This document shows positions 1 through 9,030 of a DNA stretch of 64,000 nucleotides, piece after piece. Within the stretch, counting starts at the first letter, position 1. Every line of letters begins with the position of its first letter. The translations under genes were made by a program, and so were the position numbers. The notes beneath the pieces are model-generated. The model saw nothing but the letters and a program-made list of their open reading frames with translations, had not been told where the DNA came from and did no database searches. Source of the stretch: an uncultured Bacillota bacterium (GTDB taxonomy: Bacteria; Bacillota_I; Bacilli_A; RF39; UBA660); the NCBI GenBank assembly GCA_900317975.1, contig ONIZ01000002.1, forward strand, positions 6,473 to 70,472, read 5' to 3'.

Positions 1-328
1 TTTTAAACGTACCAACATATGGTAGATGAGCAACACATTCATTTAATAAAGTTTCTTTACAAAAAAGTTCAGCATTAAATACTATACTTGTTAATTTTTT
101 TCTTTCTTCTTCAGTTATATCATTAATTTGATTTATTATATCTCTTTCTTCTAATACATTTACATCCCAATATTTTCCATCATACCATATTTTATTTTCA
201 TATTGAGAGGCGTCTAATTTTGGCTTTTCAGTATCTATTTTAGACATAGCCTTATTTGGCAATCTTCTCCATTCTCGTTTATACTCTTTTGATTTATGTT
301 TATCTTTAAAATTAAAAGATAGTCCCAT
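1..328 (-). CDS. hypothetical protein, N-terminal part only (ORF runs off the left edge)
   Basis: Reverse-strand ATG at 328 (MGLSFNFKDKHKSKEYKREWRRLPNK...) stays open to position 1. It is absent from the ORF track because no stop lies in the window. Confidence 0.45.
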   Translation of the reverse strand, partial: MGLSFNFKDKHKSKEYKREWRRLPNKAMSKIDTEKPKLDASQYENKIWYDGKYWDVNVLEERDIINQINDITEEERKKLTSIVFNAELFCKETLLNECVAHLPYVGTFK

Positions 329-363
329 AATATAAATTTTAACATCAATAGCCTATATTTAAT

Positions 364-376
364 CCCCTGTAAAGGG
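364..376 (+). repeat. dispersed GC-rich motif copy (cccctgtaaaggg), intergenic
   Basis: Sits at the centre of the 11-bp palindrome 348-358/383-393. Confidence 0.8.
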
Positions 377-403
377 AATGTCATATAGGCTATCGACAAT
401 TAC

Positions 404-1036
404 TTATTCAGCAACAGCATCGTTTAGTTCTTTTGCTTTAGCAGGAACTTCAGCATGAACTTCAGGAATTACCTTAATAAAAGGATCGTTATAACTAATG
501 TTATTATCTACAGTTCCATGAATTGCTGTAACAGGTACAATTTTAAAGCTCATAAAGCAAATAGGATGTTCTTTAATAGGTACATTATTTTCATCCTTTG
601 CAGTTCCAGAAAGAATTGTAGCTGTAAGATAATTTTTCTCTTTAGGTTCTTTACTTGAAACAATTTTTTCTTCTCTGAGTAAATAAGAAATAATGTTTTC
701 GTATGTTAAAGCACTAGGAGGAGTAATTTGAGTTCCTCTTGCAATATCTGATTCATCGATTATAACTTGTTGTCCTATTTTCCATTCTGCAGGAATAGCG
801 TCCGAATTAATTTTAACAAGAACTGCAATATCAACTGCACGAGTTTTTACTTTAGGATTGTTTAAAGTTATAAGAAAATCATACATACGAACTTGTCGTA
901 CAACTGCTACAATTGCATAATGCTTTGGAAGATTAATACAATTTGTAACATCTTCATAATACTGTGCTGGAATCTCATGAATTGATTGAGGAAGAGATAA
1001 TGTATATCTCTCAACTCGACTTTGAAGAGTAATCAT
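404..1036 (-). CDS. hypothetical protein (210 aa)
   Basis: Long ORF with no competing ORF of comparable quality. The overlapping + ORF 455-658 is low complexity. Confidence 0.7.
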   Translation of the reverse strand: MITLQSRVERYTLSLPQSIHEIPAQYYEDVTNCINLPKHYAIVAVVRQVRMYDFLITLNNPKVKTRAVDIAVLVKINSDAIPAEWKIGQQVIIDESDIARGTQITPPSALTYENIISYLLREEKIVSSKEPKEKNYLTATILSGTAKDENNVPIKEHPICFMSFKIVPVTAIHGTVDNNISYNDPFIKVIPEVHAEVPAKAKELNDAVAE

Positions 1037-1084
1037 AAATTTGTTTGTTTAATTGTTAATATTGATATTAACTACAAATGTAGT

Positions 1085-1522
1085 TTAAAGAAGCATTACT
1101 AAAACTTTTTTACCATGAACGTCATCTTTTATATAATATTTATCATATAGATAAATTTTAGGATAAGCTTTTTTAACAATTCCTCTAGCAGTTAATTCAT
1201 TTAATGCTCTAATATAAGTTGGTCTACTAATTTTATATTTAATACAAAATATTTTTTCAAATTTAGCATTACTTTCAATTTCACCACCATTTTTATTTAA
1301 TTCTATAAATAAATTCTCACCATGTTTAGTAAGATTTAATAAATGAGCATAAATTTGTAATATATCTTGTTCTTCATTAGTCTTTTTAAAGACTGCAATA
1401 ACATCTTTTTCTTTTCCCCATAATTTAGTTTTATTAGCAACAACAAACTCATCGTCTGTTTTATCTAATAAAAAATCATCTTGAGGAGCTATAAATTCAT
1501 TAAAAACTGTTTTAAGTTCCAT
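1085..1522 (-). CDS. putative winged-helix/HTH DNA-binding regulator (145 aa)
   Basis: The segment ISRPTYIRALNELTARGIVKK looks like a helix-turn-helix recognition unit. The gene sits next to a divergent promoter region. Confidence 0.5.
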   Translation of the reverse strand: MELKTVFNEFIAPQDDFLLDKTDDEFVVANKTKLWGKEKDVIAVFKKTNEEQDILQIYAHLLNLTKHGENLFIELNKNGGEIESNAKFEKIFCIKYKISRPTYIRALNELTARGIVKKAYPKIYLYDKYYIKDDVHGKKVLVMLL

Positions 1523-1583
1523 AGTTGCAAATACATTATTTGTTCTACTTTAGTCTATTTTTTGTACATTTGTACAACCAGCA

Positions 1584-1615
1584 CAAAGATACAAAAAAAA
1601 TTCCATATATGCAAA
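1584..1615 (-). promoter_or_regulatory. Bacteroidota-type promoter for 1085-1522
   Basis: On the reverse strand: TTTG (1612-1615 rc), a 20-nt spacer, then TATCTTTG (1584-1591 rc). This matches TTTG-N(19-21)-TAnnTTTG. Confidence 0.6.
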
Positions 1616-1631
1616 TTTTTTTGCAAAATTA

Positions 1632-1663
1632 TTTGCAAAAATCGATTTTTTTTACTATCTTTG
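1632..1663 (+). promoter_or_regulatory. Bacteroidota-type promoter firing rightward into non-coding DNA
   Basis: TTTG 1632-1635, a 20-nt spacer, then TATCTTTG 1656-1663. There is no ORF downstream until 2729. Confidence 0.6.
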
Positions 1664-1668
1664 TAGGC

Positions 1669-2074
1669 ATATAAAAAGTTACATATATTATATAATGTAC
1701 GCGCGTGAGTATGTCATATTATATAAAATTTTATATGTTCTTATAAATTTTGAATATAATAGCATTAATGATATTAAAGAAAGCCGAGCCAAAGATTAAA
1801 CAGAAACTCGTTTATCTGCGGACGGTATATATGCTTCGGCATATATCGAAGAAGTCCATGTTATGTTTCATAGCAATGTCAGTGACTATCTGGTGGTAGG
1901 GGTGTGGGTAGGGTTACGGTATCGTATCCCGCAAATAATATTATTAATGCTATAAAATATAATAATCGTTGTGATAACGATACTTTTTGATGTCATTTTG
2001 AGTGAATAGTTTTCGGTGTAGATTTATGTATGTTTAGATAGGAATTGTTGTGAAACAGTTCCTATCATTTTTTT
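1669..2074 (+). ncRNA. candidate structured non-coding RNA (about 400 nt), family not recognised
   Basis: Bounded by the promoter at 1632-1663 and the intrinsic terminator at 2038-2074. It has an 8-bp hairpin capped by C(UUCG)G at 1827-1846, an 11-bp closing helix 1759-1769/1943-1953, and a helix 1817-1821/1929-1933. There is no ORF. Confidence 0.45.
2038..2074 (+). terminator. intrinsic terminator
   Basis: Hairpin ATAGGAATTG...CAGTTCCTAT (2038-2065) followed by a run of 7 T (2068-2074). Confidence 0.7.
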
Positions 2075-2230
2075 ATGTTACTCATAATATTAATAAAAGC
2101 TAAAGGATAGTAGAACGTATATACTACATATACGGGCATTAAATAAAATTAAAGTAATACCCCCGTTAGTGTTATTAATAAAAATATTTTTGTAAATAAA
2201 TAAATAGGTGAGAAAGTTTTATGATACAAT

Positions 2231-2243
2231 CACTCTACAGGGG
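2231..2243 (-). repeat. dispersed GC-rich motif copy (rc cccctgtagagtg), non-coding
   Basis: Shares the extended flank atatttaatcccctgta with the copy at 364. Confidence 0.8.
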
Positions 2244-2383
2244 ATTAAATATGAGATATAACTAAAATTGTTGATATTATTATAATTATTGTATTTAAAT
2301 AAGTTATAAAGAATGTTTAATGGATTATTATAATATATAAAATAATATATTAAATATATGAAGAGGTTTAATAATGTTATTAA

Positions 2384-2491
2384 GACGATTTAGGAAAAGA
2401 TTATAGTGAAAATTATATGGAAAATTATATTGAAAATTATGATAAAGATTGTGGTGAAGATTTTAATGAAGATTTAGATGTAGATAGTAGG
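2384..2491. repeat. tandem array of nine degenerate 12-nt units (consensus about GAAGATTWTRRT)
   Basis: Units read in register: gacgatttagga, aaagattatagt, gaaaattatatg, gaaaattatatt, gaaaattatgat, aaagattgtggt, gaagattttaat, gaagatttagat, gtagatagtagg. Confidence 0.7.
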
Positions 2492-2582
2492 ATAAAAAAT
2501 TTTGTCGATTAGCGAGAAGAGGAGGGTATTACCACAAAGGGTGGGGGTGTGATAAGTGAATGTCAATACCCCCGTCATATCG

Positions 2583-2614
2583 AACCTCGTGAGAAAACAG
2601 GTCAGATTTCGAAT
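2583..2614 (+). promoter_or_regulatory. conserved 32-nt upstream box, copy 1 (upstream of 2729-3316)
   Basis: aacctcgtgagaaaacaggtcagatttcgaat matches the box at 3811-3842 at 28 of 32 positions. Confidence 0.5.
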
Positions 2615-2728
2615 GAATAAATGTTTTTCAAATATTATTCATTTATTACTGAAGTAAGTCATCTGACTACGCTTGCTTTAGCACATTATCCAATAAGTTA
2701 GTCACTCAATACAAATTCTGTTACAACT

Positions 2729-3316
2729 ATGGCACAGCCAAAAGCTAATGCAGTTGAGCAAGTTCCTGCACAAGTCGTTAACGCAGTTGAAACTGCAAGT
2801 GTTAATCTTCTTAGCTTCTCTGAAGCAGTCGATGCAACGATTGCTGATGGTGGCAAAGTAACAAAGGGTATTCATATTACTCGTGCGACTTATAGTCGTC
2901 GAGAAGATGGACACGAGATTGTTACTTTGACAGGCGATATACCTGTTGAGCGTTATGTTGCTGATGAGACAAATCCTGATGTATTTGTCAAATCAATGTC
3001 CAAGTCATTTGTTGTGTCATTATTCTCATTAGTGGGAATGATGTCCAACATGAAGGACGCACAAGTGCTCGCAGGTCGTATCTCAAAGCGACCAATGTTG
3101 ATAGAGAGTTTGCTACCAGGTAGTATTATTACAGTAGTTCAACGTGATGTCAAAGGTAATGTTCCGTTTATGAACTACTTTAGTAACAAGGAGAATACTA
3201 TCGATCATGATAGTATTGTTACCGACGTAGTCAAACTTGAAGTATCTGATTTTGCTCGTTCTATGATGGATGAGTACAAAAAGATGCTTGCATCTGCATT
3301 GATGGGAGACTTGTAG
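2729..3316 (+). CDS. hypothetical protein, paralog A of a duplicated gene (195 aa)
   Basis: Long ORF that is visibly less A+T-rich than its surroundings. It is strongly similar to 3906-4460 (ITRATYS.RE.DGHE.VTLT...PDVFVKS.SK.FVVSLFSLVG.MS.MKDAQVLAGRISKRP). Confidence 0.8.
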   Translation: MAQPKANAVEQVPAQVVNAVETASVNLLSFSEAVDATIADGGKVTKGIHITRATYSRREDGHEIVTLTGDIPVERYVADETNPDVFVKSMSKSFVVSLFSLVGMMSNMKDAQVLAGRISKRPMLIESLLPGSIITVVQRDVKGNVPFMNYFSNKENTIDHDSIVTDVVKLEVSDFARSMMDEYKKMLASALMGDL

Positions 3317-3324
3317 TTGATGAT

Positions 3325-3362
3325 AGATTTGCAGGTGATGATTGTTCATTGCCTGCAAATCT
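3325..3362 (+). terminator. hairpin after paralog A (terminator-like)
   Basis: Perfect 11-bp stem AGATTTGCAGG/CCTGCAAATCT with a 16-nt loop. The T tract after it is weak. Confidence 0.45.
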
Positions 3363-3432
3363 TTGCATTGTTATAGTTGTAGTATGATGTTGAGTAGAAA
3401 TTGCAATTATTAACCAATTAAATTATACAATT

Positions 3433-3753
3433 ATGATCGCACTTGCTCCAAAACATTCAGAAGCAATTCAAATTCTTGCTTCGCTTCCTAAAAAAGAAGT
3501 TTCTGATGTTCGTCTTGCTTACAATGGTGAAGTAGTAGCCATTGTTGATGAATCAACAATTCGTGCTCTTCAAGTTGCTATTCATGATGGTCTTACAGAT
3601 TATCGTAGATGGCTTATACTTGAAGATTACGATGATGATGAAAATGGTCATCATACAAACTTTCTTCATTTTAGAGAAGATGGTAGAATATCTGATGAGT
3701 TTAAAACAGATTTCTTTAGATTTCTAGACGATCTTGCATACAAGATCTTCTAG
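3433..3753 (+). CDS. hypothetical acidic protein (106 aa)
   Basis: ORF lying between the two paralogs, with an Asp/Glu-rich centre (LEDYDDDENGHH). Confidence 0.65.
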   Translation: MIALAPKHSEAIQILASLPKKEVSDVRLAYNGEVVAIVDESTIRALQVAIHDGLTDYRRWLILEDYDDDENGHHTNFLHFREDGRISDEFKTDFFRFLDDLAYKIF

Positions 3754-3761
3754 TTGATTAT

Positions 3762-3805
3762 GGTTCTAATATAGCTAGTATTCATTTACTAGTTATATTA
3801 GAACC
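3762..3805 (+). terminator. long hairpin (19-bp stem, loop TTCATT)
   Basis: GGTTCTAATATAGCTAGTA pairs with TACTAGTTATATTAGAACC with one G-T wobble. It lies immediately downstream of the stop at 3753. Confidence 0.45.
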
Positions 3806-3810
3806 TCAAA

Positions 3811-3842
3811 AACCTCGTGAGAATACAGGAAAGAATTCGAAT
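3811..3842 (+). promoter_or_regulatory. conserved 32-nt upstream box, copy 2 (upstream of 3906-4460)
   Basis: aacctcgtgagaatacaggaaagaattcgaat matches the box at 2583-2614 at 28 of 32 positions. Confidence 0.5.
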
Positions 3843-3905
3843 CTATTAAGCGTTTAAGCGTTTAACAGTTCTATTAATTATTTAACAATTTAAATTGTAA
3901 AAACA

Positions 3906-4460
3906 ATGAACGATGAAAAAGCAAAGGAAGTTGTAAGTCAGCCACAACTATTGACCTTTACTGAGGCAATTACTGCCACAAAAGCTGACAATGCATCTGA
4001 AGTAAAGAATCTTCAGATTACTCGTGCTACATATTCAAAGCGTGAGGAAGATGGTCATGAAGTAGTGACATTAACAACAAGTGGTCTTGTTGACAGATAT
4101 ATTGCGGATAACGATAATCCCGATGTATTTGTTAAGAGCAAAAGCAAAACTTTTGTAGTATCTTTGTTTAGTCTTGTAGGTGCTATGAGTCAAATGAAAG
4201 ATGCTCAAGTTCTTGCTGGACGTATTTCTAAACGTCCTGTTCTTGTTGAATCTCTTCTTCCTGGTTCTACTATTACTGTACTTCAACGTGAAGTTAAGGC
4301 TAATGTTCCTTTCATGAATTATTTCAGTGGAAAGGAAAACACTATTGACCATGATAGTGTTGTAACAGATATTGCTGATATTAAGCTTGGAGAGTTTGCT
4401 CTTAGTACTCTTGATGCTTATAAGCAAAATCTTGCTGCTGCTCTTATGGGCGATTTGTAA
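3906..4460 (+). CDS. hypothetical protein, paralog B of a duplicated gene (184 aa)
   Basis: Roughly three quarters identical to 2729-3316 over the C-terminal 150 aa, judged by eye. Confidence 0.8.
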   Translation: MNDEKAKEVVSQPQLLTFTEAITATKADNASEVKNLQITRATYSKREEDGHEVVTLTTSGLVDRYIADNDNPDVFVKSKSKTFVVSLFSLVGAMSQMKDAQVLAGRISKRPVLVESLLPGSTITVLQREVKANVPFMNYFSGKENTIDHDSVVTDIADIKLGEFALSTLDAYKQNLAAALMGDL

Positions 4461-4467
4461 AAGAGTT

Positions 4468-4500
4468 GCTGCTGTATTGTGAAATACGGCAGCGATTCTT
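4468..4500 (+). terminator. intrinsic terminator-like hairpin
   Basis: GCTGCTGTATT-GTGA-AATACGGCAGC (one G-T wobble) followed by gattcttatt. Confidence 0.55.
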
Positions 4501-4603
4501 ATTGTAACAGAATTTTCAGGTACATTATAATACCATAAGTGTTATAGTGTACCATTTAATGCAGCTAATTAACAGTCGTAAGCCTGTGTAAATGCAGAAC
4601 GAA

Positions 4604-4765
4604 ATGAAAATTCTTGTTGATAGTGATATTATTATTAAAGAAGTTGATAAATGTGATGATGGAGCAGCTCCTGCTCTCCATTCTAATCATTTTACTAATA
4701 ATATTACTAATCCATTTCAAATAATTAATACAAGAATTAAACAAATGAAACTTATATACATTTAG
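4604..4765 (+). CDS. possible small ORF (53 aa) in an otherwise non-coding region
   Basis: ATG 4604 to TAG 4763-4765 (MKILVDSDIIIKEVDKCDDGAAPALHSNHF...). There is no other support. Confidence 0.2.
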   Translation: MKILVDSDIIIKEVDKCDDGAAPALHSNHFTNNITNPFQIINTRIKQMKLIYI

Positions 4766-5457
4766 TGTAATTAAATATATATTACTAATGTTATATTATC
4801 AATTTTAATTTCCGCACTATAAAGCGCGCCTATTGATATGACAATAATAATGTTGGTAATATAAATACTATCATTTAATATGATATAATTGTAAATCATT
4901 TTGCTATTTAATACATCGATTGACGATGTCTTCGCTGATGATACGCAATATATCATTTAGATGATAGCAATTCATGAAATCCTACTTGGAGACGAGAAAC
5001 GGCTCATATTGAGTATCGTAAAGTTAATCCTTGATAGGTTGCATCAAGAGATACAGCAAAATATATCAGACAGTTTGTTGGTTTATAATGTCTTGATTAT
5101 TTTGTTGTATTTCTTGAGATAGTTTATGTTGAGCCTAGAGCACATAATGCTGCTATAGGTAGAATTTTTCCCATAGTACGTGATTTAGAAACCAACTATG
5201 TTAGCAGTCAGAATAACTGTTATTACAGTAAATCGTCATGCTGTGATAAATATCATATAATGTCAAAAATATGATATGATGACAACGATGCTAAGCAAAA
5301 AGCTGGTAACGATAAGAAAGAGATAGGTGAGAAGAGTGCACTCGCATCTAGACTATCTCTTTATCTTAATGTAGCCAATCGATATGATTGAGAGTCCAAA
5401 GCCTCTATAAATACAGATGGAGATAATATTATTAATAACAAATAAATTCACGCAATC

Positions 5458-5913
5458 ATGAAAAAGTATTTTAAAGAATTTATAGGAACATTAGTTCTTA
5501 TAATTTGTTTTATTATTTTAACAATAACGTTTATTGCTATAGGAAAATATTATAACGATACAATACTTATCGTTATAGGTATAACAATTAATGTTTTAAC
5601 TATAATTATGTTAATTGTTATAAATATTCAAGAAATAAACGAACGTGATAAAATTATACATAATCTAAATGAAAAAATAACTGAAGAACATACTTCAGTT
5701 ATAATGACTAGAATGATGTGTAATCAAGCTTTATCAGATGCTCTAATTTTAAGAAAAATAATTGACCAAAAAAATAAAAAAATAGAAAAATATGAAAAAC
5801 ATATAAATGAATTAATTCATAAAATTAATTGTATAAATAATGAAGCAAAAGAGCTTCAAGATTTATGCAATAGATATGAAACTCAATATGGTAAATTGAC
5901 AGATCAAGAATAA
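5458..5913 (+). CDS. membrane-anchored coiled-coil protein (151 aa)
   Basis: Two hydrophobic N-terminal segments (LVLIICFIILTITFIAIG; ILIVIGITINVLTIIMLIVI) followed by heptad-like charged sequence. Confidence 0.7.
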   Translation: MKKYFKEFIGTLVLIICFIILTITFIAIGKYYNDTILIVIGITINVLTIIMLIVINIQEINERDKIIHNLNEKITEEHTSVIMTRMMCNQALSDALILRKIIDQKNKKIEKYEKHINELIHKINCINNEAKELQDLCNRYETQYGKLTDQE

Positions 5914-5920
5914 ATTTGTT

Positions 5921-5933
5921 CCCCTGTAGAGGG
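5921..5933 (+). repeat. dispersed GC-rich motif copy (cccctgtagaggg), intergenic
   Basis: Forms the hairpin TGTTCCC/GGGAACA at 5918-5937, immediately after the stop of 5458-5913. Confidence 0.85.
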
Positions 5934-6152
5934 AACATATCTATCAATTGCTAATATTGATACTGTTATAGATAATAATAAATATAATATTGATATAGTT
6001 AATATATTATAACTTGTATATATATTATATATATTATATATAATAATTATATTATATATTTATTTATTATTATTTATAATAATAAATATAACGCACGTGC
6101 GTGCGCGTATAGTGTTTTGTAGAACATATATAATAATAAAAAATATCGTTTT

Positions 6153-6431
6153 ATGTATAGTTTATCAACTATTATAGAAAGTCAAACATGGGATAATCTT
6201 GAAGATATGCTTGAAGAACTTCATGCTAATGAAAGAACAATTCCTTGTGGAATCATTCTTGATAAGAATGGAAAAGTTGAATTTACCAATACTTTTGAAT
6301 TACTTAAAGCAGTTCAAGAACGTATTGAATTAAAACAACAAACTATACGTTATTCTTTATTTAATATCGATTTCGAAACAAATAAAGTAATAGCGACTAT
6401 TAAAGACTATGTATTAAGTTATAAAGGTTGA
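6153..6431 (+). CDS. hypothetical protein (92 aa)
   Basis: Clean ORF on the + strand. Confidence 0.6.
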   Translation: MYSLSTIIESQTWDNLEDMLEELHANERTIPCGIILDKNGKVEFTNTFELLKAVQERIELKQQTIRYSLFNIDFETNKVIATIKDYVLSYKG

Positions 6432-6660
6432 AATCCCTTTGCAAGAGTAACTTCCCGATATACTTTGTATATTTTCGCCGCTCTTGCATAAAATCATAAT
6501 CTTGTTATACAACCTTGACGAGGTGATTATGCTTTTACTAATAGTATAACACATGAGATTGTGTGAGAAGGAGCAGATGAAAGAATTAATCTTTTGTCTG
6601 CTCTTTATATTAAATTCTTACACTATCTTATAATATTAATCTTTAAAATCTCACACAATT

Positions 6661-6855
6661 ATGACACAAACAGCATCAAAACCATTACCTATTAATTGTG
6701 CAATAGGTACATGTGTAAAAAGAATTAAAAAAGTAGTTTATTTCTCAGAACAAGGAATAAATCTATTTAAAACTATTTCTTTTCCTACAGTTTTAGCAGC
6801 ACAAAATTATGTTAAACTATTAACAAAGAAAAAGGAATATGCAAAATCATGGTAA
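6661..6855 (+). CDS. hypothetical protein (64 aa)
   Basis: Clean ORF on the + strand. Confidence 0.5.
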   Translation: MTQTASKPLPINCAIGTCVKRIKKVVYFSEQGINLFKTISFPTVLAAQNYVKLLTKKKEYAKSW

Positions 6856-6894
6856 ACTATTATGTTGTATAATATAATAAAATCAATATAATGG

Positions 6895-7043
6895 ATTTGC
6901 AGATATAATAAATAGTAATATAACATTTAATATTAACAATGGGTTATGTTATATTGTTATCTAAATCACAATACATTAAAATTATTACAAGTTTCGTATA
7001 TTTTTAATGTTCTACCTATTGTTATATCTGCAAATTCATTTTT
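6895..7043 (+). terminator. long nested hairpin with T tract
   Basis: 14-bp arms ATTTGCAGATATAA (6895-6908) and TTATATCTGCAAAT (7022-7035) enclose a second 10-bp inverted repeat. They are followed by tcattttt. Confidence 0.45.
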
Positions 7044-7065
7044 ATTGAAATATTTTGCTGAAAAA

Positions 7066-7097
7066 TTTGGAATTATCAAAAATATTTTGTATATTTG
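7066..7097 (+). promoter_or_regulatory. Bacteroidota-type promoter for 7147-7692
   Basis: TTTG 7066-7069, a 20-nt spacer, then TATATTTG 7090-7097. The architecture is near-identical to the promoters at 18071 and 25197. Confidence 0.65.
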
Positions 7098-7146
7098 TGT
7101 ACAAAATAAAAAACAATATTGTTTTACTAATTAAATTATTAAATCT

Positions 7147-7692
7147 ATGAGTTATGGTTATCAAAGACCTCATTATAACAATCGAGGTCGCAATTACGGT
7201 CGTAATTATGGTCGTCGTCCATTTGTTCCTGCCACTAAAGACAAAGAAGAAACTGTAAAGTATCCTGGACTTCCACCTTTTGTACAAAATTTAGATGCAC
7301 ATTTAGTTCGTCTTGTACGAATTGTGCAAGGTAATGATGATATTAGGAGATATATATCTCTTGGTATCATTAATAGACTTATTAAATCTAAAGCAATTAC
7401 TGAAGGTGGAAACTATATACGTTTCCGTTGGGATAAATTTACTGTTTGCAGTAAAGGTATTAATACCGATTATCGGTATAATGATCCTATCTTTCTTCAA
7501 TCGTTTGTTGGATCATTTACAATTTTGACCAATGTTGCGTCTAAAGCATTAGAAAATTTTGTCAAAATTGAATTTGATCAACCAGCAGAAAAAGTAATTG
7601 ACGGAAGTGATCCTGACGGTGTTGATAAAGAGCTTATTGAAAAGCAACTCAACACAGATGAAAACCTTGGAGTTTTTGAGGAACAGCAATAA
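7147..7692 (+). CDS. hypothetical protein with Arg/Gly/Tyr-rich N-terminus (181 aa)
   Basis: N-terminus reads NNRGRNYGRNYGRRP, and a promoter lies 50 nt upstream. Confidence 0.75.
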   Translation: MSYGYQRPHYNNRGRNYGRNYGRRPFVPATKDKEETVKYPGLPPFVQNLDAHLVRLVRIVQGNDDIRRYISLGIINRLIKSKAITEGGNYIRFRWDKFTVCSKGINTDYRYNDPIFLQSFVGSFTILTNVASKALENFVKIEFDQPAEKVIDGSDPDGVDKELIEKQLNTDENLGVFEEQQ

Positions 7693-7706
7693 ATAAAAAT
7701 TTATAT

Positions 7707-7765
7707 AGTAATAAGAATACTACGGCTTTATAGCAATAAAGTTAGGAAAATGTATTCTTATTACT
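7707..7765 (+). terminator. hairpin with 13-bp stem (terminator-like)
   Basis: AGTAATAAGAATA pairs with TATTCTTATTACT and is followed by attttaaaaa. Confidence 0.4.
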
Positions 7766-7786
7766 ATTTTAAAAATTGATTTTATT

Positions 7787-7972
7787 ATGAAAAAGAATGG
7801 TCAATTCGATAAGAAAGAATTAGAAGTTATGCCTTCTAAAATTAAAGAAGCTATTTTAGAACTTAAAAAGATTCGTTATGTTTCTCCTAAACAATATGGT
7901 GTAGCAATTGCTAATTCTCCACGTCATGCATCACTTAAAGGTAAACGTATGGTTTATCTTAATAAACACTAA
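7787..7972 (+). CDS. hypothetical protein (61 aa)
   Basis: Clean ORF on the + strand. Confidence 0.55.
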   Translation: MKKNGQFDKKELEVMPSKIKEAILELKKIRYVSPKQYGVAIANSPRHASLKGKRMVYLNKH

Positions 7973-7978
7973 AATGTT

Positions 7979-8143
7979 ATGTATGTCGATGAAAATGGTA
8001 AAATTCATCTTCAATCTGCTAAAACTTTAAAAGATTTAGGAGAATACGCTTTAAATGATTATGACGACGTAGCACATGAATTAGAAGAAACATTAAATAA
8101 AGGAGATGAAGATGAAGAAATGGCTGAAATGTTAAATTATTAA
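7979..8143 (+). CDS. small acidic hypothetical protein (54 aa)
   Basis: Read by hand: MYVDENGKIHLQSAKTLKDLGEYALNDYDDVAHELEETLNKGDEDEEMAEMLNY. It is tightly packed with its neighbours and is preferred over the antisense track ORF 8019-8237. Confidence 0.5.
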   Translation: MYVDENGKIHLQSAKTLKDLGEYALNDYDDVAHELEETLNKGDEDEEMAEMLNY

Positions 8144-8148
8144 TAATT

Positions 8149-8310
8149 ATGACAACAGCTAAACTAAAAAGAGTTGTAAGTACATTTATGCAATGTCTTT
8201 CTTGTAAAGATTGTGTATTTGTAAATACTTGTATCATTTTAGAACAAACTACTTCTCATAGTTTATGTTATCATTTACAAAATAATGATGACATTGAAAC
8301 AGGTGAATAA
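8149..8310 (+). CDS. small Cys-rich hypothetical protein (53 aa)
   Basis: Read by hand: MTTAKLKRVVSTFMQCLSCKDCVFVNTCIILEQTTSHSLCYHLQNNDDIETGE. Confidence 0.45.
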   Translation: MTTAKLKRVVSTFMQCLSCKDCVFVNTCIILEQTTSHSLCYHLQNNDDIETGE

Positions 8311-8322
8311 TTAAATTAAATT

Positions 8323-8547
8323 ATGAAAAAAATATTAGAAGCTATTAAGAATTGGTGGTTATATCAAGTTCTTAAAAAAGAAAGAACTGTTGAAACTACT
8401 CGTTACATTAAAGGCTATAAAAATAGTCGTCCATTTTATATGAAGAAAATATATAAATGTGTTTATGTAGGTAACAAATGTATCAGCAGTATCAGAACTG
8501 ATCAAAAATTTATAAGTAAAAAAGAATATTATGATCAGTTTAGTTAA
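8323..8547 (+). CDS. hypothetical protein (74 aa)
   Basis: Clean ORF on the + strand. Confidence 0.55.
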   Translation: MKKILEAIKNWWLYQVLKKERTVETTRYIKGYKNSRPFYMKKIYKCVYVGNKCISSIRTDQKFISKKEYYDQFS

Positions 8548-8553
8548 ATAAAT

Positions 8554-8629
8554 AATCAATAGTATAATTGTTTACCAAATTATAGTACGTTTGATTCTCA
8601 AGAGCATTTTAACAATTATACTATTGATT
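8554..8629 (+). repeat. perfect 19-bp inverted repeat (hairpin) upstream of tRNA-Leu
   Basis: AATCAATAGTATAATTGTT (8554-8572) pairs with AACAATTATACTATTGATT (8611-8629), followed by ttttat. Confidence 0.7.
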
Positions 8630-8638
8630 TTTATACAT

Positions 8639-8712
8639 AAATCTATAGTTTTATTATATTTGCCATACCGATATATACCTCCTTCTAAATAATATGATAA
8701 AACTATAGATTT
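8639..8712 (+). repeat. perfect 16-bp inverted repeat ending 2 nt before tRNA-Leu
   Basis: AAATCTATAGTTTTAT (8639-8654) pairs with ATAAAACTATAGATTT (8697-8712). Confidence 0.7.
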
Positions 8713-8714
8713 TT

Positions 8715-8800
8715 GCCGTGATGGTGGAATAGGTAGACACGAAAGACTTAAAATCTTTTGACCAGAAATGGTTGTGTGGGTTCAAGTCCCACTCGCGGTA
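8715..8800 (+). tRNA. tRNA-Leu (anticodon UAA), type II with long variable arm, no encoded CCA
   Basis: Hand-folded. Acceptor GCCGTGA/TCGCGGT, D arm GTG..CAC, anticodon stem AAAGA/TCTTT with loop CTTAAAA. Variable arm ACCA-GAAA-TGGT, T arm GTGGG-TTCAAGT-CCCAC. Confidence 0.85.
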
Positions 8801-8832
8801 CTAATATTAATAATCTTAAATTTAGTAAAATT

Positions 8833-9030
8833 ATGACACTACTTGAAAATAATTATGGTAAACTTAGATGTCCATATTGTGATTCGGTAATGAAAATTGA
8901 ATCTTCTGATATTAATACAAATTATGATAATGAATTATATATTGTTTGTCCAGTATGTGATTCAAATATATGGGTAACTGATAATATTGTTGTTAAAAGA
9001 ATAAAAGATAATATATTATATCATAAATAA
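8833..9030 (+). CDS. zinc-ribbon protein (65 aa)
   Basis: CPYC...CPVC pairs. The start was trimmed to ATG 8833 because the track ORF start (8758) lies inside the tRNA. Confidence 0.6.
   Translation: MTLLENNYGKLRCPYCDSVMKIESSDINTNYDNELYIVCPVCDSNIWVTDNIVVKRIKDNILYHK

Follow-up and report, generated by a model that had tools for sequence, protein, structure and literature searches.

Genomic setting and boundaries of the unit

Phages of the crAss-like group rank with the most abundant viruses of the gut. Here we analyze a unit of ~400 bases from a gut or rumen crAss-like phage that is very probably a real small RNA gene. It lies on the plus strand of a 64,000-nucleotide stretch of contig ONIZ01000002.1 (assembly GCA_900317975.1, positions 6,473 to 70,472), which we call the window and whose numbering is used throughout. 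The window lies within a crAss-like phage contig of 89 kb (ERZ931368 k127_408774). Its minus strand contains the giant virion RNA polymerase open reading frames (ORFs; 30805-51845), while its plus strand carries a replication module with an SF1 helicase, PolB, a ligase and ThyX. The PolB is 52-55% identical to that of Carjivirus and Diorhovirus (Intestiviridae, Crudevirinae). The RNA unit is located inside a 1.2-kb ORF-free gap (1523-2728) that is flanked by diverging gene sets. To the left is a 145-aa winged-helix gene (1522-1085, minus strand), followed by a 210-aa gene that is a distant relative of p-crAssphage gene 86, which has been listed as a putative structural protein (PMC7886860). 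To the right, a 195-aa gene that starts at 2729 on the plus strand heads the replication module.

The unit is bounded by a promoter and a terminator that an earlier note on this DNA had pointed out, and both are present. The promoter is Bacteroidota-type and occupies 1632-1663 on the plus strand, with a -33 element TTTG (1632-1635), a 20-nt spacer and the -7 box TATCTTTG (1656-1663). The -7 box is kept in all syntenic loci and the promoter is invariant among nine strain variants. Near-identical copies occur at 7066, 18071 and 25197 on the plus strand, each closely 5' of a gene, and the pattern TTTG-N17-23-TAnnTTTG has 16 matches versus 7.2 expected. The promoter of the RNA gene belongs to a phage-wide class of the host-polymerase type. 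We also observe that an extended promoter, TTTGCAnATATCAAAAATTTTTTTGTATATTTG, is shared by the RNA gene and the copies at 7066, 18071 and 25197. The intrinsic terminator (2037-2074, plus strand) consists of a 13-bp stem (2037-2049/2054-2066) with a GUGA loop of the GNRA type, followed by seven T residues (U7 in the RNA; 2068-2074). Its stem covaries in eight lineages and the GUGA loop is retained in six. Since no T-run lies behind the stem on the minus strand, the terminator is one-directional. With a start site that we infer to be at ~1669-1671, the promoter-to-terminator transcript would be ~404 nt long (1669-2074). A small-protein gene within the unit is ruled out, as there is no ATG-started ORF of at least 20 aa that is common to the lineages, four of which have none at all. 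The unit therefore has the sequence features expected of a terminator-bounded small RNA gene: it is ORF-free, it has a promoter of its own and a Rho-independent terminator, and its structure is conserved.

Conserved structure of the RNA

Folding of 1669-2074 yields a minimum free energy (MFE) of -107.5 kcal/mol versus -83.1 +/- 4.8 kcal/mol for dinucleotide shuffles (z = -5.1, with 0 of 100 shuffles as good), and the core alone (1759-1953) has a folding z of -4.4. The reverse strand of the unit is likewise stable (z = -4.9), so the strand is not decided by thermodynamics alone.

Comparative analysis involved three lineages, designated A (the window), B (phages L019/L191) and C (L023/L192). Strain variants were found by exact-protein look-ups and diverged phages through relatives of the flanking proteins. 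The 145-aa and 195-aa flanking proteins are members of very narrow families, and it was the gene-86-like 210-aa neighbor that gave the diverged relatives. Flanking proteins of the three lineages are 41-65% identical and the gene order is the same. The parts of the RNA also follow the same order in A, B and C: a 5' hairpin, the 5' arm of helix P1, AAAG, P2, P3, CGAAG and P4, followed by CUGGUGGUAGGG with further G tracts, an optional P5, the 3' arm of P1, a C-poor tail and the terminator. Thus, in all three lineages the core is predicted to be a multi-helix junction that is closed by the long AU helix P1 and that contains three invariant, purine-rich joining strands (AAAG, CGAAG and CUGGUGGUAGGG).

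Covariation was assessed with a hand-made block alignment in which unalignable interiors were replaced by AAAA linkers and gaps by N, because MAFFT alone misaligned the variable interiors. When the analysis is restricted to the three lineages, standard pairs make up 99.5% of 217 cells as compared to 73% with shuffled partners, and when the partner is slid by 1-3 columns only 33-43% of the cells pair. Two-sided changes are present in 22 of the 36 pairs in these three lineages, and in 28 of 36 when all 11 sequences, which add L096, L102, L101 and L104, are included. The covariation score for A, B and C is 0.586 versus 0.165 (0 of 500 shuffles), a comparison that involves few and related sequences, which in the tool's own trials can beat shuffles without any structure. 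Helix P3 is particularly informative, as two-sided changes affect seven of its eight pairs across the three lineages while pairing stays at 100%, and its alignment is not a free choice because invariant GGU and CGAAG directly flank it. The slid-partner control and the anchored P3 are the weightiest covariation evidence. Compensatory changes in homologs, which the earlier note had proposed to look for, are thus found, and P1, P2, P3 and the terminator stem are maintained by them in three lineages.

The base pairs also define the strand. G-U pairs make up 37 of 298 paired cells, and pairing falls from 99.7% on the plus strand to 87% on the minus strand. Since G-U pairs would be C-A mismatches on the minus strand, the structure is assigned to the plus strand, with which the promoter and the one-way terminator agree. 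Together, the covariation and the plus-strand G-U pairs support the proposal in the earlier note that this is a promoter- and terminator-bounded structured non-coding RNA (ncRNA).

Strain variants, which are 87-97% identical across the gap, provide a finer view of the same helices. Among 13 strain-variable positions, six keep their pair as G-U or A-U (1768, 1770, 1773, 1814, 1829 and 1950 on the plus strand), two shift the register of P5, four are unpaired and one disrupts a pair. Substitutions at 1768, 1770 and 1773 are A/G changes in the 5' arm of P1 that retain A-U or G-U pairs, and C1950U in strain L004 produces a G-U pair in the 3' arm. The combined changes C1930U and G1931A give P5 the perfect register GUAGGGU/AUCCUAC.

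Parts of the RNA

Near the 5' end of the predicted transcript, the MFE structure has an AU-rich hairpin with a CGCG-containing apex (1688-1726, plus strand, as are all parts described below). The underlying TATA..CGCG..TATA palindrome is kept in L019, L023, L192, L101 and also L099, and because L099 has neither the promoter nor the core, the palindrome may also act as DNA, for example as a protein-binding site. The L099 copy of this CGCG-centered AT-rich palindrome is at ~2800-2850 on the minus strand. Strain L010 has a 20-nt deletion that corresponds to window positions 1733-1752, between the 5' hairpin and P1, and this spacer consequently appears dispensable.

The core is closed by P1, a long AU-rich helix with its 5' arm at 1759-1776 and its 3' arm at 1936-1953. 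An 11-bp helix noticed earlier (1759-1769 with 1943-1953) is real but too short, as P1 extends to 18 bp with one G-U pair in lineage A. It is 23-25 bp long in lineage C and the AU-rich sequences are unrelated. The P1 arms of the window and of the L023/L192 lineage differ and yet remain complementary, which is also true of L102, a phage that is not statistically tied to the family. P1 is followed by the A-rich joining strand J1/2 (1777-1782), which together with G1783 forms the conserved ...AAAG^CC; AAAGCC occurs directly 5' of P2 in lineages A, B, C and in L096. P2 (1783-1826) is a long irregular hairpin with a variable interior (36-75 nt across the three lineages) and a base composed of GCCG (1783-1786) and CGGU (1823-1826). 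The base has the form GCCN/NGGU, with a G-C pair in A replaced by U-A in B and C (GCCU/AGGU).

P3 abuts P2 and is an 8-bp hairpin (1827-1834/1839-1846) with a UUCG loop (1835-1838), exactly as the earlier note had described it. The helix is 7-8 bp long across lineages and reads AUAUAUGC-UUCG-GCAUAUAU in A, UAAGCGA-UUU-UCGCUUA in B and AAUCGUA-GCAA-UACGAUU in C. Directly 3' is the joining strand J3/4 (CGAAG, 1847-1851), which is the same in all three lineages, and then P4 (1852-1889), a hairpin of 33-38 nt that differs in each lineage and is not alignable. Single-sequence MFE structures independently recover P2 and P3 in most lineages.

All three lineages have an identical G-rich strand, CUGGUGGUAGGG (DNA CTGGTGGTAGGG; 1890-1901), which is present as a ...GGC variant in L096 and is single copy in the window. 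Further G tracts extend to 1919. The G-rich tract seen earlier at 1892-1919 is present, and the relatives keep only CTGGTGGTAGGG (1890-1901) invariant. At least four closely spaced GG tracts occur in A, B, C and L096, which would allow a G-quadruplex of two tiers. A pairing between the G-rich strand and a downstream ACCCCCGU motif (7 bp in A and C) was a loose idea that was dropped because lineage B does not have it. P5 (1902-1935) is an optional hairpin formed from the G tracts that is present in A and C and absent in B; differences in P5 between L023 and L192 are compensated. A helix between TGCGG and CCGCA had been suggested for this region. Both strings exist (1817-1821 and 1929-1933), but the helix is contradicted by the strain variants, most of which have TA at 1930-1931 without compensation at 1817-1821; with the TA variant, CCUAC instead pairs with GUAGG in a local hairpin.

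The 3' tail (1954-2036) is U/G-rich and C-poor, with long stretches that lack C, and it is 80-150 nt long in A, B and C. In a strain comparison based on a biased sample, just 1 of 124 columns is variable. A hairpin ATCGTT-GTGAT-AACGAT, reported earlier, is present one base away from its given position (1965-1981) and is not conserved elsewhere. A UGUAGAU motif in the tail is also present in L096 and L104.

Distribution of the RNA family

Measured from the -7 box to the U-run, the unit is 419 nt long in the window, 425-436 nt in L019/L191, 430-454 nt in L023/L192 and 422 nt in both L096 and L102. The syntenic units of L019/L191, L023/L192, L096 and L102 have also been put at 410-445 nt, beside proteins of just 41-65% identity. 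Shortened units that keep the promoter and terminator and are missing the core are present in L101 (282 nt) and L104 (184 nt), and no promoter-to-terminator unit was found in L099, cr3_1 (Diorhovirus) or p-crAssphage. These five phages (L099, L101, L104, cr3_1 and p-crAssphage) are without the core while keeping other elements of the gap. L099, L193, L194 and the L098 contig end have either no upstream DNA or no core. Since the sister lineages as well as cr3_1 and p-crAssphage do without it, the core is accessory and not the replication origin. The carriers constitute a clade of ruminant and animal-gut crAss-like phages that are related to the Crudevirinae.

The order GGU-P3 hairpin-CGAAG-variable hairpin-CUGGUGGUAGGG was tested with R1, a covariance model that covers the core's 3' half and that finds this order in A, B and C with scores of 63.7-89 bits (E of 5e-11 to 2e-16). 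Because these same sequences trained the model, their match is by construction, and the independent support for the A/B/C family is synteny and covariation. R1 finds nothing in L101, L104, L099 or positions 1-9000 of phage phi14:2. L096 and L102 have only synteny, unit length and motif order in common with the family, with L102 containing UGGGGUAAGGG.

The unit is a previously undescribed RNA family of narrow distribution. A search of 1400-2900 with the 4227 covariance models of Rfam 15, a check that the earlier note had named, recognized no family even at E <= 10. The best match (emrB-Lactobacillus) scored 21.9 bits versus a gathering score of 60.8 (E = 1.8), and nothing was obtained at E <= 1 for the homologous units of L019, L023, L096 and L102. 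A blastn search of GenBank phages with the gap and with the L096 unit gave no match. Scans of IMG/VR with GGTAGGGGTGTGGGTAGGG and with CGAAG-N25-50-CTGGTGGTAGG(G) returned, among the matches listed, none or G+C-rich coding chance matches. A scan of GTDB genomes (one per species) with a 21-base gapped pattern returned 13 matches, approximately the estimated chance number, all of which are G+C-rich and apparently coding. No bacterial counterpart emerged from this pattern scan.

Other elements and genes of the gap

A mirror-image Bacteroidota-type promoter at 1615-1584 on the minus strand (pattern match TTTGCATATATGGAATTTTTTTTGTATCTTTG) drives the leftward operon from the 145-aa winged helix-turn-helix (wHTH) gene onward. 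The back-to-back promoters form a 41-nt inverted repeat (1583-1623/1624-1664) within which, at ~1609-1640, there are three TTTGCAAA-like boxes. The 145-aa protein (1085-1522, minus strand) is from a very narrow family and has a C-terminal winged-helix motif, SRPTYIRALNELTARGIVKK. Its likeness to the RepL-like gp88 of p-crAssphage is faint (hhalign E = 0.017 in a single comparison, with a reported probability of 2.7%).

At the other end of the gap, the 195-aa protein (2729-3316) and a 184-aa protein (3906-4460) are early paralogs that are 67% identical and have no Pfam or PHROG match. The 195-aa protein and its paralog are modeled as an OB-fold (pLDDT 80.8) that matches a protein annotated as a single-strand DNA-binding protein (SSB) in BFVD with E = 6e-11 and solved SSB structures with E ~0.01. 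On these models, the genes at 2729 and 3906 are predicted to encode crAss-type SSBs. A repeated motif, written as AACCTCG..ACAGG..AGATTTCGAAT or as AACCTCGTGAGAAnACAGG..AGAnTTCGAAT, is found 5' of each SSB gene (2583-2614 and 3811-3842). Repeats of a similar form, ..ACA..TAGATTTCG, are located before the first rightward genes of L101, L191, L104 and p-crAssphage, the last of which (L195, region 95631-96138) has two motif copies before the RepL-like gp88. The SSB-upstream motif may be an early promoter or another kind of conserved control site.

Two hairpins that pair a G run with AAUACCCCCGU are located at 2543-2578 and 2131-2166. The right-hand one (GGGGGUGU ... AUACCCCCGUCAU) is kept in every relative examined, including Diorhovirus cr3_1, and p-crAssphage has an analog in which AT-rich repeats are enclosed by a long inverted repeat (ACTCCCCGTGGAGGATG / CATCCTCCACGGGGAGT). 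In the window hairpin, the G arm resembles GGUAGGGGUGUG of the RNA at 11 of 12 bases. Between the hairpins, 2260-2510 is C-free and purine-rich, with a GC skew near +1, a G+C content of 11-20% and the short direct repeats GAAAATTAT and GAAGATTT. It is the most strain-variable part of the gap, with many indels. This candidate origin region resembles a set of iterons or an unwinding element. The minimum of the cumulative GC skew is also in the divergent gap, at ~1650.

A proposed trans-acting RNA and its alternatives

The explanation that we favor, with somewhat more belief than doubt, is that 1669-2074 on the plus strand encodes a stand-alone structured RNA of a new family that is transcribed by the host polymerase and acts in trans. 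Host RNA polymerase would produce a discrete stable transcript, which the hairpins at its 5' end and in the terminator may protect. P1, as a long and perfect AU duplex, would insulate the core, and where it is 18-25 bp long (lineages A and C) it may also be an RNase III processing stem that releases the core. The invariant junction strands would then be a binding surface for a protein or small ligand, with the RNA acting in trans as an accessory factor in infection, for example as a decoy, scaffold or regulator. A stable trans-acting RNA with the junction as its functional site is favored because the helices are variable while the purine-rich joining strands are invariant, P1 would insulate and the terminal hairpins would protect. 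A more specific proposal, which is speculative and improbable as it stands, is that the core is a new functional RNA fold, either a ligand-sensing or a catalytic junction. In such a fold the G-rich GG-U-GG-UA-GGG..GG strand might form a two-tier G-quadruplex against AAAG/CGAAG, and the RNA might be an accessory factor that acts, for example, against host defense or in the takeover of a host function.

Several observations weigh against this favored reading. Since the block alignment was made to fit the structure, the pair counts are biased in its favor, and the low strain diversity is biased since the contigs were retrieved via an identical neighboring protein. Only three lineages are statistically tied to the family: L096 scores just 15.3 bits with R1 (E ~1) at the syntenic position, and L102 is not found by R1 even with filters off. 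P1 is ambiguous in lineage B, as is the entire core of L096. P2 may also face competition, because GCCN is able to form an alternative helix with the G-rich strand that measures 10 bp in L096, 6 bp in B and C and, with a bulge, 7 bp in A. This alternative pairing hints at a possible conformational switch, which covariation does not support. Finally, action in trans is argued mainly from the exclusion of cis readings, the RNA gene is predicted from sequence, and the sequence points to no particular partner or target.

The first cis reading is that the unit is a leader that controls read-through of the host polymerase into the replication module, either as an attenuator (riboswitch-like or dependent on a protein) or by processive antitermination (as in lambda pR'-tR' or HK022 put). 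The unit has the same orientation as this plus-strand module and stands at its head (SSB gene at 2729, helicase, PolB), and its layout of promoter, structured domain with invariant junction nucleotides and terminator is what such a leader would have. We nevertheless consider a leader unlikely. Between P1 and the terminator lie 84-150 nt that are not conserved, and upstream pairing with the 5' arm of the terminator is no better than shuffled in six of seven lineages and occurs at inconsistent positions. There is no conserved alternative pairing with the terminator and no ORF just downstream, as would be expected of a riboswitch or attenuator. In addition, L101 and L104 retain the promoter and terminator without the core. 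The possibility raised in the earlier note, that the region is simply the long 5' leader of the gene at 2729, is unlikely because the terminator is strong and conserved, it is followed by 650 nt that are ORF-free up to the nearest ORF of the same orientation, the 2729 gene is preceded by a conserved motif of its own (2583-2614, with a repeat at 3811-3842) and there is no conserved anti-terminator.

In the second reading, transcription from 1663 activates or primes replication, as do ColE1 RNA II, the R-loops of T4 oriF/oriG and the mitochondrial LSP-CSBII transcript, with the G-rich strand forming a persistent RNA-DNA hybrid. The unit is in the divergent gap at the cumulative GC-skew minimum, it adjoins the C-free iteron-like repeats (2260-2510), the faintly RepL-like wHTH protein and the SSB genes, and a G-rich RNA segment is unusual for a genome with a G+C content of 29%. 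This reading is nonetheless doubtful, as the strong terminator releases the RNA 170 nt past the G tract and helices that are kept through G-U pairs point to a folded free RNA. Moreover, an origin should be essential whereas the core is missing in L099, L101, L104, cr3_1 and p-crAssphage. The purine-rich repeats and the GGGG/ACCCCCGUCAU hairpin further to the right, both of which these genomes retain, are stronger candidates for the origin.

A third possibility is that the unit is a new catalytic RNA, self-cleaving or of another kind, by which its own transcript is processed. Its combination of variable helices with short and invariant strands at the junction is a signature of small ribozymes, and the same phage has two twister-P1-like ribozyme matches in spacers of the early region, 2.5-3.5 kb downstream of the RNA. 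The match at 4553-4606 has a score of 44.4 bits (E = 2.9e-7) and that at 5363-5424 a score of 57.1 bits (E = 6.2e-11), each on the plus strand. Both are below the gathering score of 67.2, which is why the default Rfam scan missed them, and the related phage L023 has the same pair (5699-5752 and 6799-6859). We regard catalysis by the unit itself as quite improbable, however, since no Rfam 15 ribozyme model matches it, no cleavage site is deducible and the sequences are too few to define a catalytic core.

Lastly, a DNA-level element, in which P1 would be MITE-like ends, a cruciform or a protein-binding site with the RNA structure incidental, is very improbable. In its favor, the same flanks occur in related phages with or without the core between them, in the manner of a cassette, and P1 is an 18-25 bp inverted repeat. 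Against it, the element is single copy in the window, IMG/VR has no credible copy beyond the relative L096 among the matches listed and GTDB genomes and GenBank phages have none. The P1 arms differ between lineages while remaining complementary, contrary to ends that are conserved for transposase binding, the substitutions preserve G-U pairs on just one of the strands and the internal hairpins covary. A small mobile DNA element of the MITE type is accordingly rejected, as there are neither multiple copies nor conserved terminal inverted repeats.

If the trans-acting RNA is indeed a decoy, sensor or ribozyme, then it would add an RNA-based accessory function to this order of phages, and if it is none of these it would still be a new RNA family for annotation. 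In either case the element is a bounded RNA with comparative support, which provides defined helices, three invariant strands and natural relatives with and without the core.

Comparison with known RNAs

Structured ncRNAs are known from phages and mobile elements, for example ROOL, GOLLD, HEARO, 6S, tmRNA and RNase P. The window RNA is none of these, as no model of them matched at E <= 10 in the window region or at E <= 1 in the four homologous loci. A 5S rRNA-like identity, suggested by GAUGGUAG..GGGG, was dropped and has no Rfam match, and a tRNA-like identity was set aside because ARAGORN finds only tRNA-Leu and tRNA-Glu, both elsewhere. The window RNA shares the heptamer UGGUGGU/GGUGGUA with the T-box sequence of T-box leaders (RF00230), and like them it lies upstream of a terminator. 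This candidate was rejected given that there is no Rfam match at E <= 10, no Stem I or specifier loop noted on reading, no conserved anti-terminator pairing and no downstream aminoacyl-tRNA-related gene identified. An inverted repeat followed by AAAG, as in a retron, is present. A retron msr-msd was rejected since there is no RVT domain in the 27 Pfam-scanned window ORFs on the plus strand or beside the gap, a scan that left out the large minus-strand ORFs at 30805-64000, small ORFs and the rest of the genome.

ColE1 RNA II, the T4 origin transcripts and the mitochondrial LSP primer are similar in being structured G-tract transcripts with a promoter beside replication functions. In contrast to these, the window RNA has a strong terminator, is dispensable in sister phages and has no evident hybrid-forming or RNase H site.

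The pRNA of the phi29 family is phage-encoded and promoter-driven, with paired ends that form a long helix closing a multi-helix junction and with a secondary structure that is kept while its sequence diverges. The window RNA shares the end-closing long helix, the multi-helix junction and the retention of structure as sequence diverges. Unlike phi29 pRNA, its family shows no conserved loop-loop complementarity, and the P3 loops vary (UUCG, GNRA, U-rich). A role in packaging is not supported because crAss-like phages package by terminase and the core is absent from sister phages.

Almost nothing is known of ncRNAs in crAss-like phages, and the only report that we found concerns phage phi14:2. 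Its early region (the g004-g006 gap) produces highly expressed long ncRNAs (lncRNAs) of unexplained function (Drobysheva et al., bioRxiv 10.1101/2020.03.07.982082), which were reported to be above most mRNAs in abundance (bioRxiv 10.1101/2020.03.07.982082). Phage phi14:2 belongs to another family, the Steigviridae, and its lncRNAs have no published structure or boundaries and show neither an R1 match nor sequence similarity to the window RNA, which unlike them has a host-type promoter and a defined terminator. Both are nevertheless ORF-free stretches of a crAss-like phage genome that are located at the head of a rightward module and are co-directional with it. The early ncRNAs of phi14:2 are thus the closest precedent for the RNA described here.

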